From a virus: a stretch of 44,362 nt of DNA. This document shows, piece by piece, positions 1-44,362 of this stretch. How positions within the stretch are numbered: position 1 is the first letter of the stretch; every line of letters begins with the position of its first letter. The notes beneath the pieces are model-generated. The model was given only the letters and a program-made list of their open reading frames with translations. It did not search any database and was not told the DNA's origin. A program made the position numbers and the translations under genes. The stretch is taken from the UHGV virus genome UHGV-0253961; one strand, 5' to 3'.

Positions 1-107
1 ACGGAAACGGAGGGATAAAAATAAATTTCTAAATAAAACTAAATAGCCATAAGTACAGTGTTTTCAAAGATTTATTTTCTAAATAGAACTAAAAGATTAT
101 AACTATT

Positions 108-127
108 TTGACACGTATTTGACACGT
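108..127. repeat. attL/attR: Candidate prophage attachment-site core, left copy (TTGACACGTATTTGACACGT). It is an imperfect direct repeat of 44308-44327
   Basis: 18 of 20 nt match the copy that overlaps the integrase stop codon at the other end. Each copy contains a tandem TATTTGACAC motif. All phage ORFs lie between the two copies. Confidence 0.5.
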
Positions 128-131
128 GTAC

Positions 132-161
132 ACAAAAAACCACGCTCATAAGAACGTGGTT
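132..161 (-). terminator. Rho-independent terminator on the minus strand: stem AACCACG/CGTGGTT followed by a T-run
   Basis: Inverted repeat at 138-144 and 155-161 with a 10-nt loop. An A7 run on + at 132-139 gives a U-tract after the stem on the minus strand. Confidence 0.5.
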
Positions 162-208
162 TAGAATATAGTATTAGTTTGAAATTAGGGACAAAGATTA
201 TTATACAA

Positions 209-239
209 TAAAAAATAGGGTAGCCATAGCGACTACCCT
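209..239 (-). terminator. Rho-independent terminator on the minus strand directly after the 273-1199 gene: stem AGGGTAG/CTACCCT plus T-run
   Basis: Inverted repeat at 217-223 and 233-239 with a 9-nt loop. An A-run at 209-215 on + gives a U-tract on the minus strand, 34 nt downstream of the gene's stop. Confidence 0.6.
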
Positions 240-272
240 TGTATAATGACGTGGTGATTTAATTATATCACA

Positions 273-1199
273 CTAAGATTTTTCGATGTAATCACTATAA
301 TACGCCCACCGATATTTTTCACCTGTATTAGGATTACGCCCTGCATATTTCCTTTTCCCTCTGCAAACCATGACAATGTTATTTTCTTGTTTTAAATCAA
401 CTTCATCTATAGCTTCTTTAATACTTCCGAAAATTTTATTATCGTTTAATCTAACAACTTTTCTAGTATTGTTTTTAGCTCCACCCCTCGGATTATATTC
501 ACCTAATTTTTTAAGAATAGACACTATTTTCTTTCTATATAATCCTGTTTCCCTGCTAATTTCCAAAAAAGATATTCCTTTTTTGTGTTGATCAATTAAG
601 TACTTAACATCAACATTTAATATACGCGTCATTACGGCGTTTTTTAAACTGTTTTTGTCGTAAACATTTAATATATCACTTAATTTTGAGTTTTTTATTT
701 CTTTTAAAATATAATCCATATCAGATTTACTGCAGTTTATAGCTACATAGTCCATTTCATTCTTTAAGCAATATTCTTCTTTAATTTTGTCTGAAAACAA
801 CATTCTATCGTTATACCACTTAGAGTTTTTTCTAACATCATAATGCTGTTCGCCATGCATTTCTATACATATATTTTCTTTTGGTAAATAAAAATCAAAA
901 GGCAACACATCTTTATAAACGCAATTGTCAAATCTCATTTGTGAAATATAAAAGATGTTGTTATCCTTTAATAATTGTTCCATTAACCTTTCTGAATAAG
1001 ATCTGTTATCAGCACACACTTTACATTTAAAACCTCTTCTTTTGATTTCTCCAGGGCTTTTTACTAGTTGTGTTTTACAATTAGGGCATACCCACAATAT
1101 TTTTTGGGTGCTAGAACTACCTAGTTTTTTAGCGTGTTCTTTATCTTTAACAAATCTTCTGAGATAATCATTTTCATAAACCGTTTCTTTTATTGGCAT
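273..1199 (-). CDS. Putative DNA endonuclease (308 aa): Zn-ribbon, Vsr-like PD-(D/E)xK nuclease core, HTH, and a C-terminal homing-endonuclease-type DNA-binding tail. It is an accessory (moron) gene
   Basis: CPNC...CKVC zinc-ribbon. The motif PFDFYLPKENICIEMHGEQHY resembles the Vsr/DUF559 D...E.H core. The C-terminal KIFGSIKEAIDEV...VCRGKRKYAG...YRWAY resembles the NUMOD-like tails of phage HNH and GIY-YIG homing endonucleases. The gene has its own RBS (GAGGTGG), an extended -10 promoter and two terminators. Confidence 0.6.
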   Translation of the reverse strand: MPIKETVYENDYLRRFVKDKEHAKKLGSSSTQKILWVCPNCKTQLVKSPGEIKRRGFKCKVCADNRSYSERLMEQLLKDNNIFYISQMRFDNCVYKDVLPFDFYLPKENICIEMHGEQHYDVRKNSKWYNDRMLFSDKIKEEYCLKNEMDYVAINCSKSDMDYILKEIKNSKLSDILNVYDKNSLKNAVMTRILNVDVKYLIDQHKKGISFLEISRETGLYRKKIVSILKKLGEYNPRGGAKNNTRKVVRLNDNKIFGSIKEAIDEVDLKQENNIVMVCRGKRKYAGRNPNTGEKYRWAYYSDYIEKS

Positions 1200-1227
1200 A
1201 ATTCCACCTCGTTAATTAATACACCTT

Positions 1228-1236
1228 ATTATACCA
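1228..1236 (-). promoter_or_regulatory. Extended -10 promoter element (TGgTATAAT on the minus strand) for the 273-1199 moron gene
   Basis: Reverse complement of 1228-1236 reads TGGTATAAT. It sits about 30 nt upstream of the ATG at 1199, just downstream of the lysis-cassette terminator. No good -35 is present. Confidence 0.4.
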
Positions 1237-1245
1237 TTTTTTATG

Positions 1246-1269
1246 TAAAAAAAGCGGGTTTCCCCGCTT
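1246..1269 (-). terminator. Rho-independent terminator ending the lysis cassette: stem AAGCGGG/CCCGCTT plus T-run on the minus strand
   Basis: GC-rich 7-bp stem at 1252-1258 and 1263-1269 with loop TTTC. An A7 run at 1247-1253 gives a U-tract on the minus strand, 8 nt after the endolysin stop. Confidence 0.65.
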
Positions 1270-1276
1270 GATATAG

Positions 1277-2659
1277 TTATTTCCACTTTATCTTTCCATA
1301 TAATTTCTTCTCTTTTTTTATCCGTTCTTGTTTGTCAGTAATTTCACCCAAAGCGCAATAAAAATAACCAGAACTAGGATTAGTCGGGTATTTAAATTTA
1401 CCCCACCATAATTTTTTCTTAGTGTCTTTGTATAATTGAACAATATCTACCCAATCGTCTTTTCCGTACAACCAAGAACCTTTTTCTACAATTTCGCCGT
1501 TGGGTTTTTTTCTAACTTTAATTGTTGTGTTCGGATAAAATCTACCTTTCCAATCCCATGTTTTTTTTACACTTTTAACTTTACCTGCACTTGTACCTCC
1601 AATTGGCTTGCCGTTAATAGCGCTTGCTATTGACTTTGTGAAAGGTTTTATATTTTCATTAATATACTTCATATCTTTATATGAAGTAATGAACCCCAAT
1701 TCAACAAGTCTATAGTCTATACCAATATCATTAGCAACATTACAGTTTAATAAGTCGTTACGTTGAGTTATCCCTCTTATAGTACCAACACTTTGTTTTA
1801 GTGCTGCTTGGATGTTTTTATCCGTTATATTAGCAGGATAACCGGCTGGAATGATTGTATGTCCACCTGTAGCTTTAGGACCTGCACTATCTAAATGAAA
1901 TTCAATAACAGTATCATATCCTTGAGATTTTACCCAATATAAGCCATAATCTCTGTGATTACCGACTCTTACTCCATAGGCTGTATCCTGATACATATCT
2001 TGCTTTTTTCCATATATACCAACAGTATGTCCTGCATCTTTCAAATATTTTGATACATTATCAACAATGTTTTTTCTTATAAAATCACGTTCGTTATAAC
2101 CATTACCAATAGCACCAGGATCATTATACCCATGACCAGCAACGATCATCACTTTTCTTTTTTTAACTTTTTTTACAGGTTTAGGTTTAGTTGTTTTTGC
2201 TTTAATTTTACTTACTTTTGTTTCTTTAGAATACAGAGGTTCTACAAAATACATATCAGGGTGATATTCGTGGTATATTGTTTGAGCAACCTCTGGCGGA
2301 TTATTTCTTGCCCCGCCATACCAATTTTGATCCAAACTATAGAAATAATTTTGAGTAGCACTTTCTATAATAGCAACATGACCACATCCGTTACCATATT
2401 CGTAAGGAAAAACAACTAAAGTACCTTTTTTAGGAATATAAGAGTTATAATTTTTTACAACATTCGCGTATCCGTTAAAATCATTAACAAAAGGTATATC
2501 TTTAGCGTACATACCACTTAAAGTATGACCTGTTACGTAGTACCAATATTGATTGGCTAAATCAAAACATTGTGCGCCATAAACACCGTCGAAATCCCAC
2601 CAATAACCTTTTAACCTGTCTAAATAAGCATGCGCTTGATTTCTAGTTTTATTTGTCAT
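1277..2659 (-). CDS. Phage endolysin: N-terminal CHAP peptidase, central N-acetylmuramoyl-L-alanine amidase (Amidase_3-like), and a C-terminal W/K-rich cell-wall-binding domain (SH3b-like)
   Basis: CHAP motif YGAQCFDLAN with a downstream His. Central KVMIVAGHGYNDPGAIGNGYNERDF matches the amidase_3 signature. The ATG overlaps the holin stop (TAATG). Confidence 0.9.
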   Translation of the reverse strand: MTNKTRNQAHAYLDRLKGYWWDFDGVYGAQCFDLANQYWYYVTGHTLSGMYAKDIPFVNDFNGYANVVKNYNSYIPKKGTLVVFPYEYGNGCGHVAIIESATQNYFYSLDQNWYGGARNNPPEVAQTIYHEYHPDMYFVEPLYSKETKVSKIKAKTTKPKPVKKVKKRKVMIVAGHGYNDPGAIGNGYNERDFIRKNIVDNVSKYLKDAGHTVGIYGKKQDMYQDTAYGVRVGNHRDYGLYWVKSQGYDTVIEFHLDSAGPKATGGHTIIPAGYPANITDKNIQAALKQSVGTIRGITQRNDLLNCNVANDIGIDYRLVELGFITSYKDMKYINENIKPFTKSIASAINGKPIGGTSAGKVKSVKKTWDWKGRFYPNTTIKVRKKPNGEIVEKGSWLYGKDDWVDIVQLYKDTKKKLWWGKFKYPTNPSSGYFYCALGEITDKQERIKKEKKLYGKIKWK

Positions 2660-2931
2660 TAATCATTACCTCCAATTGGTGCTTTACCATTTGTGTTTTC
2701 TGTACCTGCTTTAACTTCATGCAATTTTTGTTGTCCTTTTTGTGCTGCGTGAGAGAAATTATTGTTTTTCCACCAAGTCCACAAAGAAATTGCACCAGTA
2801 ATAATAGAACTGATAGTCACTTCGTCTACCGGAATAGGTGAAATATGTTTCGTAGCTAAAAATTGGTTAACCCAAGCTAAAATAAATACGATTGTTCTTA
2901 CAATTGAACCTACATCTGTTTTCATACTCAT
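2659..2931 (-). CDS. Holin (90 aa, two or three TM helices)
   Basis: Small hydrophobic protein immediately upstream of the endolysin and overlapping it. It has a charged C-terminus and an AAAGGAG RBS. Confidence 0.8.
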   Translation of the reverse strand: MSMKTDVGSIVRTIVFILAWVNQFLATKHISPIPVDEVTISSIITGAISLWTWWKNNNFSHAAQKGQQKLHEVKAGTENTNGKAPIGGND

Positions 2932-2951
2932 ATCTCCTTTTAGATAAATTA

Positions 2952-2972
2952 AAAAGCCAACGCATTGCGTTG
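2952..2972 (-). terminator. Terminator-like hairpin between the tail genes and the holin (CAACGC-att-GCGTTG plus T-run on the minus strand)
   Basis: Perfect 6-bp stem at 2958-2963 and 2967-2972 followed by TTTTT on the minus strand. It is probably leaky, as is common in late operons. Confidence 0.4.
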
Positions 2973-2980
2973 ACTCGATT

Positions 2981-3508
2981 TTATTTATTCTCTTTTATTA
3001 ACTTTTTATCTTCGATAGAATGATCATTATAGATATATTTAACCTCTATAGATCCTTCAGAAGTTTCATCTAATATGCCTAAAACATCAGGATTAGTCGT
3101 GATATTATCTATCTCTTGTAATTTAATAGGTTCGTCTAAACTATCGAATTTTACAATAGCGTTGACTTTGAACTGTTTAGGCAACTCTGTTTTAGTGCTG
3201 TAACAATAGTTTATAAAATCTTGTAAATTAAAGAGCTTTTTGTTTTCTAGATTAGATACATAACCATTAAACATCCATTCTAAGTTACTTTTTAAGATTT
3301 CATCGACTTCATTGCCGTCAGTAAATATAGCAACTTGTATAGGCTCAACTACACCCTCTGTATATTGTAATAACCAATAGTCAATTGTTTTCTTATTAGA
3401 TAACCAATCCTCTTTCATTATCTTAACTACTTCTTCGGCGATAGGTTTAGCCATTAGTTCAATCCATTGCCCTTTTTCTTTGTCGAAAATTTTAGGTATA
3501 GCTTTCAT
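2981..3508 (-). CDS. Hypothetical protein (175 aa), acidic and cytoplasmic-looking, with no recognisable structural motif
   Basis: Long ORF in the late-operon orientation. Its start overlaps the stop of the upstream gene. Confidence 0.55.
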   Translation of the reverse strand: MKAIPKIFDKEKGQWIELMAKPIAEEVVKIMKEDWLSNKKTIDYWLLQYTEGVVEPIQVAIFTDGNEVDEILKSNLEWMFNGYVSNLENKKLFNLQDFINYCYSTKTELPKQFKVNAIVKFDSLDEPIKLQEIDNITTNPDVLGILDETSEGSIEVKYIYNDHSIEDKKLIKENK

Positions 3509-4017
3509 TATTCATTACCTCCAGTAGTATCAATCCAAATTTTAGTTGTGTCATTAGGGGCGTTCTCTCCAATAACAAAATTTTCTTCGCTTTCAGTTTG
3601 ATTCTTAATTAATCCGTTTTTTACACCGTATTCAATCATTTCTTGCCATAAATCATGATTTTGTGTATTGATCAATTGCCTACCAATCACACTCTCTGTT
3701 ACTTGAATTTTCGCTTTATTGTCGGACGGGAATACATACTTGTTATCCACCCATATTTCTAATGAATACGTGTTTGCAGGGATAATTTGATTGATTACAA
3801 CATCACACACATAGGCATTGTCATATTGCCTAACTGTAGTGTCGTAGATATATTTGACACCTGTACTGTCAGTGAGAAAAACTTTTGCAGGCAATCCTTC
3901 TAATTTTAAGTCTTCGTTGTTATTGTCAGACAAGATGTATCGCATGTGCGATAAGTCACCTTGTTTAATGCGATTGCCGTCTTGTGAGTCATTTAAATTA
4001 AGTACATTTATTAACAT
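3508..4017 (-). CDS. Hypothetical protein (169 aa), possibly tail-associated
   Basis: ORF co-oriented with the late operon, directly downstream of the virion hydrolase. Confidence 0.55.
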   Translation of the reverse strand: MLINVLNLNDSQDGNRIKQGDLSHMRYILSDNNNEDLKLEGLPAKVFLTDSTGVKYIYDTTVRQYDNAYVCDVVINQIIPANTYSLEIWVDNKYVFPSDNKAKIQVTESVIGRQLINTQNHDLWQEMIEYGVKNGLIKNQTESEENFVIGENAPNDTTKIWIDTTGGNE

Positions 4018-5864: not shown

Positions 5865-6847
5865 CGTTTGTATTTAACTTAACGCCTTTCCCCGCATTAA
5901 TTTCTTAATACGCTTGTGTAACGTTAAATTGCTCTATAAAAAGAGCCTCATGCTTTCACATGAGACTAGACTATATCTTAATATTCATTTTTAGCTTTTT
6001 TATAAGCTAAGTGTGCTTCTTCTGCAGTTTCATAAACACCTAAGTATATAAATTTCTTGTTTTTGTAAAGTTGCGCTTGATATTTGTTTAGATGTGGTTT
6101 GTAAGTTACTCCTGTATATCCTGTCTTATTATGATATTTTCGTCGATTGTTTGAATTTTCTTCATGACTAACCCATCTGCAATTTGATGGTTTATAATCG
6201 TCATCGTTGTTAATTCTGTCTAATTCAGCACCTTCGAATGGTACATCCCCCATATCTTTGTAGAATTGCATAAAGTCATCTTTCCACTCATCACAAACCT
6301 TTATACCTCTACCGCCATATGCGCTGTAAAAATCATAATTAGAGTTGTAACATCGTTGCTTCATACCTTTCCATTTATTATAAATTAAAGTTCCAGTCAT
6401 ACCGTGTTTTTTAGAATGACTAACTTTATTCAAACAACCACAACTTTTAGAATAACCATTTTTAACTTCGGTACCAATCATTATTTTTTCATTACCGCAT
6501 CTCGTACAGTAACATTTATATAGTTTCTTTTTATGTTTATTTCTGCCATAAAACTCTAGAACTTTAAGATAATTAAACTGCATTCCTACAATGTCCATTT
6601 GACCACTCCTTATCAATCGTCAAATACATTGTATCACACATGAATATTTAATGCACTGCCTATCAATTGATAGTACATAGTCGTTGAAGCTTCCTCTACT
6701 ATTACCATAGAGGCTTGCCTGCTGATTGCCCAATCCTTAATATTTTTTAACTTTCACGCTTACCGTTACCAGTTACGTTGTAGTTATTAAGGCTCTAAGG
6801 GTGTCCCAGCAATTCACATTATTTTTTTACATGGAACCCATTAATTA
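5865..6847 (-). mobile_element. Putative group I intron (about 983 nt) interrupting the CHAP domain of the tail hydrolase gene and carrying an HNH homing endonuclease ORF
   Basis: Exon 1 ends ...GYYGA and is followed immediately by TAA. Exon 2 resumes QCWD... . The upstream exon ends in T and the intron ends in G, as group I splicing requires. The internal ORF has its own RBS. Several stem-loops are present. Confidence 0.6.
5978..6616 (-). CDS. Intron-encoded HNH homing endonuclease with an AP2 DNA-binding domain (212 aa)
   Basis: HNH_3-type motif ELDRINNDDDYKPSNCRWVSHEENSNN. AP2-like TGYTGVTYKPHLNKYQAQLYKNKKFIYLGVYETAEEAHLAYKKA. Cys-rich N-terminus. RBS AAGGAG. Confidence 0.8.
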   Translation of the reverse strand: MIRSGQMDIVGMQFNYLKVLEFYGRNKHKKKLYKCYCTRCGNEKIMIGTEVKNGYSKSCGCLNKVSHSKKHGMTGTLIYNKWKGMKQRCYNSNYDFYSAYGGRGIKVCDEWKDDFMQFYKDMGDVPFEGAELDRINNDDDYKPSNCRWVSHEENSNNRRKYHNKTGYTGVTYKPHLNKYQAQLYKNKKFIYLGVYETAEEAHLAYKKAKNEY

Positions 6848-6955
6848 AGCTCCATAATAACCGTCCACATCAACCCTTCTACCAATCATACTTCTTGCCC
6901 ATGCTGCAACTTCAGAAGCAGTAGGCTTTCTTTTTTTAGGACTAGGTAATCCCAT
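6848..6955 (-). CDS. Virion-associated peptidoglycan hydrolase, exon 1 (36 aa: MGLPSPKKRKPTASEVAAWARSMIGRRVDVDGYYGA)
   Basis: ATG at 6955 preceded by GAGGTG. It encodes the N-terminal start of the CHAP domain up to just before the catalytic Cys, then reads directly into a TAA. Confidence 0.65.
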
Positions 6956-43261: not shown

Positions 43262-44311
43262 ATGGCAACATTTACAGTAACAAAACGCAAAAATAAGACA
43301 AGCTCATCATGGCAATACGATGTTAAACACCCTAGTTTGAAATCTGGCAAAAAACGTAAATCTGGATTTAAAACAAAAGCTGAGGCTACAAACGCAGCAC
43401 AACAATTAATTAGAGATTTAGAAGATGGCAACAACATTGAAGATAATAAAAAGTTCGTTGACTACTACGATGACTGGATAAAAATTAAGAACAAGAAACA
43501 GTTGTCTAGCAAACAATTCTACTGGTATGAAAGATCGATTAAATTATTCAGTGAGTATTTCGGAGAAAATATGTTAGTTAAAAATATCACACGTAGTGAG
43601 TATCAAAAGTTTTTAAATCAATACGCACAAGGTCACACTGATGAAACAGTAAGAAAAGTTCACGGTTGTCTTGCTAGATGTATTAGAGACGCGTTATACG
43701 ATGGCTATTTGAAGAAAGACCCTACTTATAATGTAAATATCAAAGGGACTGAAAAAGCTAAAGATGAGAAATTTAAGTTTATTACGATAAAAGACTATTT
43801 AAACTTGCTAGATTATTTCAAGAAAAGAGATGAAGAAAGTTATGTTTTGCTATATCTATTAGGCATTACTGGCGCAAGATATAGCGATGTCATCAATATG
43901 ACTTACAAAGACCTAAACAAAGCGAATGGCATAATTCATTTGCCTGGAACAAAAACAAAGAATTCAAAACGTGATGTAGAAGTTAATTCAAAAGATATCA
44001 TGCACATAAATTCAAAATTAGCTAAAATGCCGCGTAGAATTGATGGCAAGCTATTCTCGGTTAGTCATACATCAGTAAGTAAAGCATTTAGAAAAGCAAA
44101 AGAAGTGATAGGATTAAACGATAATAATATAACTCCCTATTCACTCAGACATACGCACACATCTTACTTACTATCTAAAGGCATACCAATCGAGTATATA
44201 AGTAAACGTTTAGGTCACGCTACTATATCACAAACGTTAGACACGTATTCACATTTATTAGAAGAACATAAAAAAGAGCAAGGCCAACGTGTCAGAGAAA
44301 TATTCTCTTGA
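43262..44311 (+). CDS. int: Tyrosine integrase (site-specific recombinase, phage integrase family)
   Basis: N-terminal arm-binding/SAM-like domain. The C-terminal catalytic region has R, H..R and Y (LRHTHTSYLLSKG, LGHATISQTLDTYSH). RBS AAGGAGG. The stop overlaps the att repeat. Confidence 0.9.
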   Translation: MATFTVTKRKNKTSSSWQYDVKHPSLKSGKKRKSGFKTKAEATNAAQQLIRDLEDGNNIEDNKKFVDYYDDWIKIKNKKQLSSKQFYWYERSIKLFSEYFGENMLVKNITRSEYQKFLNQYAQGHTDETVRKVHGCLARCIRDALYDGYLKKDPTYNVNIKGTEKAKDEKFKFITIKDYLNLLDYFKKRDEESYVLLYLLGITGARYSDVINMTYKDLNKANGIIHLPGTKTKNSKRDVEVNSKDIMHINSKLAKMPRRIDGKLFSVSHTSVSKAFRKAKEVIGLNDNNITPYSLRHTHTSYLLSKGIPIEYISKRLGHATISQTLDTYSHLLEEHKKEQGQRVREIFS

Positions 44312-44327
44312 CACTTATTTGACACTT
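44308..44327. repeat. attL/attR: Candidate attachment-site core, right copy (TTGACACTTATTTGACACTT), overlapping the integrase stop codon
   Basis: Direct repeat of 108-127 (18 of 20 nt). Typical overlap of the int 3' end with the attP core. Confidence 0.5.
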
Positions 44328-44362
44328 ACTCTCTCGAAAGCCCGTCATATCAACGGTATAGT

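Follow-up and report, generated by a model that had tools for sequence, protein, structure and literature searches.

The virus genome UHGV-0253961 was analysed as one stretch of 44,362 nucleotides, referred to as the window in the following. Near its left end, between the endolysin gene (1277-2659) and the int/attP region, lies a gene on the minus strand that encodes a protein of 308 amino acids (aa) and is the subject of this report. A previous sequence-only reading had located an open reading frame (ORF) for a stand-alone nuclease between endolysin and att, and this position is confirmed. The first 3 kb of the window match temperate siphoviruses of Staphylococcus epidermidis belonging to the genus Rockefellervirus (phiIPLA7/PH15/E72-like), with nucleotide identities in this region of 99.3% to PG-2021_90, 100% to phiIPLA7 (over 217-3000) and ~96-97% to E72 and PH15. 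Almost all genes, from the replication genes to the lysis module, are encoded on the minus strand, and the plus strand carries a repressor-integrase block at the right end, with int at 43262-44311. In PG-2021_90, the last base of the window adjoins its first base without interruption, indicating that the window represents a whole phage or prophage opened near attP.

Organization of the 308-aa gene and its expression signals

The translated ORF contains both peptides quoted by the sequence-only reading, PFDFYLPKENICIEMHGEQHY and ...VCRGKRKYAG...YRWAY (ORF list). Three intrinsic terminators flank the gene, and all three were recovered by a scan for hairpins followed by a T-run as well as by folding, where each lies well below shuffled controls. 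In positions 1-3000, the scan revealed six terminator-like sites compared with 1.0 expected. The terminator behind the endolysin stop codon is also kept in vB_SepS_27, a phage that bears a paralog of the gene. Likewise present in the sequence are the two remaining signals named before, an extended –10 motif, TGGTATAAT, and the ribosome-binding site GAGGTGG. No match to a –35 element was obtained for TGGTATAAT with a two-hexamer promoter scanner, which does not report the site.

Six homologs with 46-66% protein identity (in P0003, P0005, P0007, P0008, P0010 and phiSA_BS2) show the same upstream order: the preceding stop codon, a hairpin with T-run, the motif TGnTAtAAT, a Shine-Dalgarno sequence and the start codon. 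A TTGACA sequence is found in the hairpin loop in phiSA_BS2 and P0008 and after the hairpin in P0010. Because these signals recur in the same order upstream of six homologs, we are more confident that TGGTATAAT acts as a promoter. The autonomous layout of terminator, promoter-like motif, ribosome-binding site, ORF and terminator is therefore supported by the scan, by folding and by the upstream regions of the homologs. Terminator-promoter units are located at 1245-1269 plus 1228-1236 in the window, at ~3410-3490 in the phiSA_BS2 record (L008), at ~3880-3970 in L021 and at ~4265-4340 in L023. Judging from these sequences, a compact terminator-promoter unit seems to travel with the endonuclease gene.

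Table 1. Coordinates of the 308-aa gene, its encoded domains, flanking signals and other features of the window.
Feature	Position	Strand	Details
ORF of 308 aa, candidate free-standing homing endonuclease (Vsr-like, EDxHD-type)	273-1199	minus	ATG start; stop TAG at 273-275
Cys4 treble-clef zinc finger, DUF4379/CapR-like, aa 1-66	1002-1199	minus	C38, C41, C59, C62
Vsr-like nuclease domain, aa 67-176	672-1001	minus	E70, D102, E113, (H115), G116, H119, D137, K140
Helix-turn-helix domain, aa 182-231	507-656	minus	
NUMOD-like/I-HmuI-like DNA-binding tail, aa 247-308	276-461	minus	follows flexible linker aa 232-246
Intrinsic terminator directly after the endolysin stop codon	1245-1269 (scan: 1252-1269)	minus	7-bp stem, 5 GC pairs, T-run; dG -12.4 kcal/mol, z -4.25
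Extended –10 promoter-like motif TGGTATAAT	complement of 1228-1236	minus	read from sequence
Shine-Dalgarno sequence GAGGTGG	complement of 1204-1210	minus	four bases (AATT) before ATG; read from sequence
Conserved block with terminator 217-239, common to all relatives	217-270	minus	seven-phage alignment; 268-270 = endolysin TGA of empty-site phages
Terminator in conserved block	217-239	minus	scan and fold; dG -14.6 kcal/mol, z -3.4
Second intrinsic terminator, between cassette and attP region	137-162	minus	dG -16.3 kcal/mol, z -6.5
Segment replaced in vB_SepS_27 by a 1.2-kb cassette	271-1229		BLAST breakpoints 270/271 and 1229/1230
Endolysin 3′ end exchanged along with the cassette	1277-1495 (gene 1277-2659)	minus	mismatch pattern against E72-type prophages and vB_SepS_27
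Tandem TTGACACnTATTTGACAC repeats	44310-44330 and 107-131		flank the junction of window end and window start; tyrosine integrase gene immediately upstream
ORF of 212 aa inside the hyd insert	5978-6616	minus	C-terminal AP2 domain (Pfam AP2)

Domain architecture and family of the protein

An AlphaFold2 model based on an alignment of 93 relatives (predicted local distance difference test score, pLDDT, of 90.9) shows a Cys4 treble-clef zinc finger, which is presumed to be a DNA-binding module, a central nuclease domain with a Vsr-like fold, a helix-turn-helix (HTH) domain and a C-terminal tail. Sub-threshold Pfam matches agree with the two ends of this architecture, with DUF4379 covering residues 14-64 (E 1.5e-4, short of the gathering score) and a NUMOD-like domain of I-HmuI covering residues 255-287. 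Model and matches thus support the zinc ribbon, the Vsr-like PD-(D/E)xK core, the HTH and the homing-endonuclease-type tail that had been proposed from the sequence. An additional NCBIfam match to an IS1 transposase zinc finger (E 0.014) was rejected as noise.

Within the alignment of the 93 relatives, D102, F103, E113, G116, H119, D137 and K140 are invariant, and C38, C59, S67 and E70 are nearly so. The EDxHD motif was defined by the correspondence of E25/D51/H64/H69/D97 of Vsr to E170/D196/N208/H213/D222 of I-Bth0305I (PMC3239194). Residues E70, D102, H115, H119 and D137 agree with the order and spacing of this motif, with H119 and D137 assigned by order only. An hhalign comparison with E. 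coli Vsr pairs E70 with E25, D102 with D51 and H115 with H64, although the match is weak (E 0.04). Like EDxHD homing endonucleases, the protein therefore combines a Vsr-like, PD-(D/E)xK-related catalytic fold with modular DNA-binding domains of the NUMOD/HTH type. As this link is one of fold and motif and does not extend to the sequence level, we assign the protein to an outgroup of the EDxHD enzymes, as in PMC12350094. In that paper from 2025, homing endonuclease genes that encode CapR/DUF4379/DUF723-like domains ahead of an EDxHD/Vsr-like nuclease are described as a large outgroup that had gone unrecognised (PMC12350094), and a zinc finger of this kind N-terminal to a Vsr-like nuclease is what we find in the 308-aa protein.

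The family of the protein is large, with thousands of unannotated members: an exhaustive HMMER search returned 12,509 cluster representatives at E <= 1e-3, many with matches that span the full length. PHROGs matches comprise phrog_4538 (4e-112, unknown function), phrog_9084 (“homing endonuclease”, 9e-30), phrog_559 and phrog_7140 (“intron encoded nuclease”, 2e-18). By tblastn, relatives were detected in 356 phage records, 221 of which are staphylococcal, and Twort-like Herelleviridae carry one to six copies per genome. Some of the relatives already bear such names: “intron-encoded protein B” for one inside terL of Twort, “VSR homing endonuclease” for one in terL of Quidividi, “intron encoded nuclease” in 812 and EFLK1, and “homing endonuclease” in SEP9 and Romulus. 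A search of the viral proteins of BFVD for similar folds led to homing endonucleases of staphylococcal phages, a “VSR endonuclease” and a “Group I intron protein”. Domain matches in the set of 93 relatives are to DUF4379 (63/93), DUF723 (20/93), CapR (15/93), PvuRts1I-like_N (6/93) and DUF559 (2/93).

The protein itself is 100% identical in phiIPLA7 and E72 (both over the full length), PH15 (residues 12-308) and PG-2021_93. The authors of the E72 paper refer to the identical protein, gp30, as “a different putative endonuclease” and recognised no known genes of lysogenic conversion behind the lysis genes (PMC8125051). The E72, phiIPLA7 and PH15 proteins are annotated as “hypothetical/conserved phage protein”, and PMC8125051 gives no analysis of family, fold or mobility.

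Distribution, exchange and endolysin linkage of the cassette

Four related phages (BE28, phiIPLA5, S-CoN_Ph18 and vB_SepS_48) lack the gene, in agreement with the earlier statement that it is outside the core gene set. In these empty sites, the endolysin stop codon directly abuts the conserved block that carries the first downstream terminator, and the end of this block, 270/271, defines the left boundary of the cassette. In vB_SepS_27, the replacement cassette encodes a 386-aa paralog that shares 37% identity with the 308-aa protein over 235 residues, extends further at the N-terminus and lacks the NUMOD-like tail. The same two-piece match pattern was obtained for CNPH82, CNPx, 456, 459 and IME1348_01.

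A comparison of the window with vB_SepS_27 revealed only a single mismatch from 1395 to ~5400, and over these ~4 kb the two otherwise differ only in the cassette and the adjacent positions 1237-1394. This 158-bp stretch contains 18 mismatches, 10 of which affect the third base of an endolysin codon. The reverse is seen with E72 and eight places in E72-type prophages, where 0-1 mismatches over 217-1495 are followed by ~5% divergence through the rest of the endolysin gene. The 308-aa protein is 98-100% identical among phages whose flanks differ by ~5%. Based on these mismatch patterns, the cassette and the adjoining 165-220 bp of the endolysin 3′ end have moved jointly from genome to genome. The gene hence shows the sporadic presence at a fixed site and the incongruence with its flanks that characterise homing endonuclease genes. 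The exchange pattern is the product expected from gene conversion initiated by a double-strand break, and we regard it as supportive of homing, not as decisive.

Two other kinds of mobile element were considered and rejected. An intron- or intein-borne ORF does not fit, as there is no Rfam match of note in 1-1400 and the ORF, bounded by the endolysin stop codon and a terminator, has a ribosome-binding site of its own. A transposable element resembling an insertion sequence was dismissed because neither terminal inverted repeats nor a target-site duplication is present at the cassette ends; repeats near the cassette are weak chance ones, and none lies at 270/271 or 1229-1279.

The closest relatives are consistently associated with lysin genes. 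Every homolog of 46-66% identity with retrievable context either immediately follows a lysin gene or has a lysin gene on each side. In P0003, P0005 and P0007, the homolog follows the lysin gene in prophages that differ in their holins, lysins (Amidase_2 or Amidase_3) and integrases; in the lytic Baoshanvirus phiSA_BS2 it also follows a lysin gene, and in P0008 and P0010 it is found between two lysin genes of Twort-like phages. The post-endolysin position is thus kept in lytic Twort-like myoviruses, which have no att. Where the 3′ half of the endolysin is of the same type as in the window, one of the two paralogs is present in each case (19 of 19 phage records). Relatives with <=38% identity occur at other loci. 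The lysin upstream of the 47%-identical homolog of phiSA_BS2 (L008 1610-3408) is annotated as two coding sequences 342 bp apart, and this split may reflect an intron or a frameshift.

The description of the locus as a virulence-cargo slot harbouring a moron is not supported. The gene sits within the conserved terminator block of the lysis module, the block that abuts the endolysin stop codon in empty-site phages, and close homologs occupy the post-endolysin position in lytic myoviruses devoid of att. The accessory genes of relatives are inserted left of ~200, outside the 217-239 terminator, indicating that the nuclease is attached to the endolysin and is not in the cargo slot proper. The true variable cargo slot is between the 217-239-type terminator and the integrase. 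Here, E72 carries the extra genes gp31 and gp32 (1992-2646 of the E72 record L002), among whose products is a membrane-associated protein. At the same place, some S. epidermidis prophages with the same nuclease (GCA_004374795.1; L032/L033, 7120-8035) encode a SocA_Panacea-domain protein and a small partner, possibly a toxin-antitoxin pair. Two prophages in one assembly each carry the nuclease gene.

A homing endonuclease reading and its alternatives

We propose that the product of the 308-aa ORF is a homing endonuclease of the Vsr-like/EDxHD outgroup, encoded by a free-standing, intergenic gene that is linked to the endolysin locus, and we put the probability of this reading at about 0.75. The proposal draws on the fold and the conservation of the catalytic residues, on the patchy occurrence of the gene and its replacement by a paralog at the same site, and on the exchange tracts centred on the cassette and the linkage to the endolysin. 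The protein would be expressed from its own σA-type extended –10 promoter. Its zinc finger, HTH and NUMOD-like tail would together recognise a long degenerate site, predicted to lie around the 3′ end of the endolysin gene or the terminator of the lysis module in relatives that lack the gene or carry the other paralog. The Vsr-like domain would cut this target, with Mg2+ held by D102 and D137 and with H119 acting as general base. Repair by homologous recombination off the endonuclease-carrying genome would then copy the cassette along with a few hundred bp of the endolysin 3′ end.

Several observations weigh against this proposal. Searches of the PDB with the single protein (phmmer) or with a 93-sequence profile did not reach I-Bth0305I (3R3P) or Vsr (1CW0) and returned only zinc-finger mitoribosomal DUF4379 proteins and noise, and the protein has no match to Pfam Vsr or DUF559. 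Because the PDB sequence searches miss Vsr and I-Bth0305I, the assignment as a nuclease rests on fold and motif. No cleavage target site emerged from the computational analysis. These phages commonly recombine in a mosaic fashion, as judged by other blocks of 100% identity to E72, for example at 2900-3800, and the exchange tracts are therefore compatible with ordinary module shuffling. For the same reason, we do not accept the perfect-identity tract shared with E72 as proof of homing. The block at 2900-3800 comprises the holin upstream region and two small tail genes within a region that is otherwise 3-10% diverged from E72.

Also counting against homing, the 19 phage records include no empty allele that shares the endolysin 3′ end of the window. 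In IMG/VR, a bridging pattern for such an allele gave 0 matches, and 3/3 contigs with the same endolysin end carry the nuclease; in the JGI metagenomes, there were again 0 matches, and of three contigs two carry the nuclease and one is cut. With such small denominators, these searches provide a weak negative. As no empty allele with this endolysin end was found, a donor-recipient pair for homing can be traced only indirectly.

This absence would also fit a degenerate or domesticated relic, that is, a former homing endonuclease that has become immobile and is now kept by its linkage to the endolysin or co-opted as a DNA-binding, regulatory or general phage nuclease. In line with such a history, the holin-endolysin-nuclease block moves as one module among prophages with different tail-fibre genes, integrases and downstream genes. 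Nevertheless, we regard a relic as very unlikely: all seven invariant residues of the catalytic core and the four cysteines of the zinc site are intact, the near-identity of the protein across diverged flanks speaks for recent transfer and not for decay, and in an otherwise near-identical genome a paralog has replaced the nuclease at the same boundaries.

A promoter-like motif of its own, flanked by terminators at the prophage end, is the classic layout of a moron expressed in the lysogen, and this argues both against the homing proposal and for a defence or superinfection-exclusion nuclease. Such an enzyme would be produced in the lysogen from its own promoter and cut incoming phage or plasmid DNA to the benefit of host and prophage. 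A stand-alone unit beside attP, a nuclease equipped with several DNA-binding modules and the SocA_Panacea-containing gene pair just downstream in some prophages would fit this role. Homing endonucleases are also able to mediate marker exclusion or interference between co-infecting phages, as in the case of SegF/SegG of T4 and I-HmuI/II of SPO1/SP82. Still, the only match in PADLOC-DB v2 was to PDC-S69 at noise level (E 0.004, 14.8 bits, 60 residues of the nuclease core), and no partner genes of a defence system were found near the ORF. Homologs are abundant in strictly lytic Herelleviridae, some of them inside group I introns of terL, where no benefit to a lysogen is possible, and the closest ones keep their post-endolysin position in lytic myoviruses; in relatives, the accessory cargo lies outside the 217-239 terminator and away from the nuclease. 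Of the two functions originally offered, the evidence thus favours the freestanding homing endonuclease, while the defence effector received no positive support. Taken as a whole we consider defence unlikely, and it survives mainly in the form of exclusion of competitors mediated by a homing endonuclease.

A restriction-type or repair enzyme, either nicking mismatches like Vsr or cutting modified DNA like PvuRts1I, is scarcely credible. In its favour, the source records name some relatives “Restriction enzyme” or “very-short-patch-repair endonuclease”, and 6 of the 93 relatives match PvuRts1I-like_N. Yet there is no cytosine methyltransferase nearby, whereas vsr overlaps dcm in E. coli. The Pfam Vsr match is absent, and the additional modules include no SRA-like reader of modified bases; with a zinc finger, an HTH and a NUMOD-like tail, they correspond to those of homing endonucleases. 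The E. coli enzyme (PDB 1CW0) differs further in that the 308-aa protein has no dcm partner and no context for an intercalating Trp pair, and contains three added DNA-binding modules; by its context, it is not a repair enzyme.

Functional parallels to a free-standing homing endonuclease at this locus come from T-even phages. SegF and SegG of T4 and Hef of T-even phages are free-standing phage endonucleases that promote “intronless homing”, and both their cleavage sites and marker exclusion have been demonstrated. The 308-aa gene resembles segF, segG and hef in its intergenic position, its own expression signals, its sporadic presence, the alternative endonuclease genes at the same site and the localized exchange tracts. 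Their phages are lytic T-even phages, whereas the phage described here is temperate. Hef is listed as a member of the Vsr-like family (PMC3239194).

Compared with the prototype of the EDxHD homing endonucleases, I-Bth0305I (PDB 3R3P; PMC3239194), several differences are apparent. I-Bth0305I is encoded in a group I intron of recA and has its NUMOD/HTH part at the N-terminus and the nuclease at the C-terminus, whereas the 308-aa gene is intergenic and its product starts with the Cys4 zinc finger, followed by the central nuclease, with the HTH and the NUMOD-like tail at the C-terminus. The sequences of the two proteins do not match significantly, and E113 and K140 are additional invariant residues of the 308-aa protein. 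With the proteins of PMC12350094, it shares the module order of treble-clef/CapR-like zinc finger(s) preceding a Vsr-like nuclease of ~100 aa. Those proteins are intron-encoded, with three to five zinc-finger-like repeats and a C-terminal nuclease, whereas the 308-aa protein is free-standing, has one zinc finger and carries in addition the HTH and the I-HmuI/NUMOD-like tail.

A more far-reaching version of the homing proposal, which we put forward as doubtful, is that this lineage has specialised on the endolysin locus of staphylococcal phages as unrelated as temperate siphoviruses and lytic Twort-like myoviruses. From its own σA extended –10 promoter, placed just after the endolysin terminator, the nuclease would be expressed constitutively, also in lysogens, and would cut the lysis module of superinfecting relatives without the gene. 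The enzyme would then be a gene drive for the linked holin-endolysin allele and, at the same time, a prophage-encoded weapon in phage-phage competition.

For the 308-aa protein and many of its relatives, the GenBank label “hypothetical protein” can be replaced by Vsr-like (EDxHD-outgroup) homing endonuclease with zinc finger, HTH and NUMOD-like tail, and a false lead is removed, as the gene is probably not virulence or immune-evasion cargo and does not represent a recognisable defence system. Modestly new is the finding that the closest clade is consistently tied to endolysin 3′ ends across very different staphylococcal phages and is exchanged together with them. This linkage could help to explain the mosaicism of lysis modules, which are being developed as enzybiotics. 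The locus would offer a tractable temperate-phage model for intronless homing, and if the enzyme is site-specific, a characterised member would be added to a large untested branch of homing endonucleases.

Elsewhere in the window, the tandem TTGACACnTATTTGACAC repeats probably represent integrase arm-binding sites around the attP core, judging from their arrangement. The gene hyd, which encodes a tail-associated cell-wall hydrolase, carries a 984-bp insert at 5865-6848 relative to vB_SepS_27. The BE28 counterpart of the 212-aa ORF inside this insert is annotated as “HNH endonuclease”, and two regions, 6603-6857 (39.4 bits, E 3e-8) and 5949-5981, match group I introns of Rfam below threshold. 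For E72, hyd has been reported to contain a “noncoding intron” (PMC8125051). By its sequence features, the hyd insert resembles an intron-borne homing element, which would be the second homing element of this phage.

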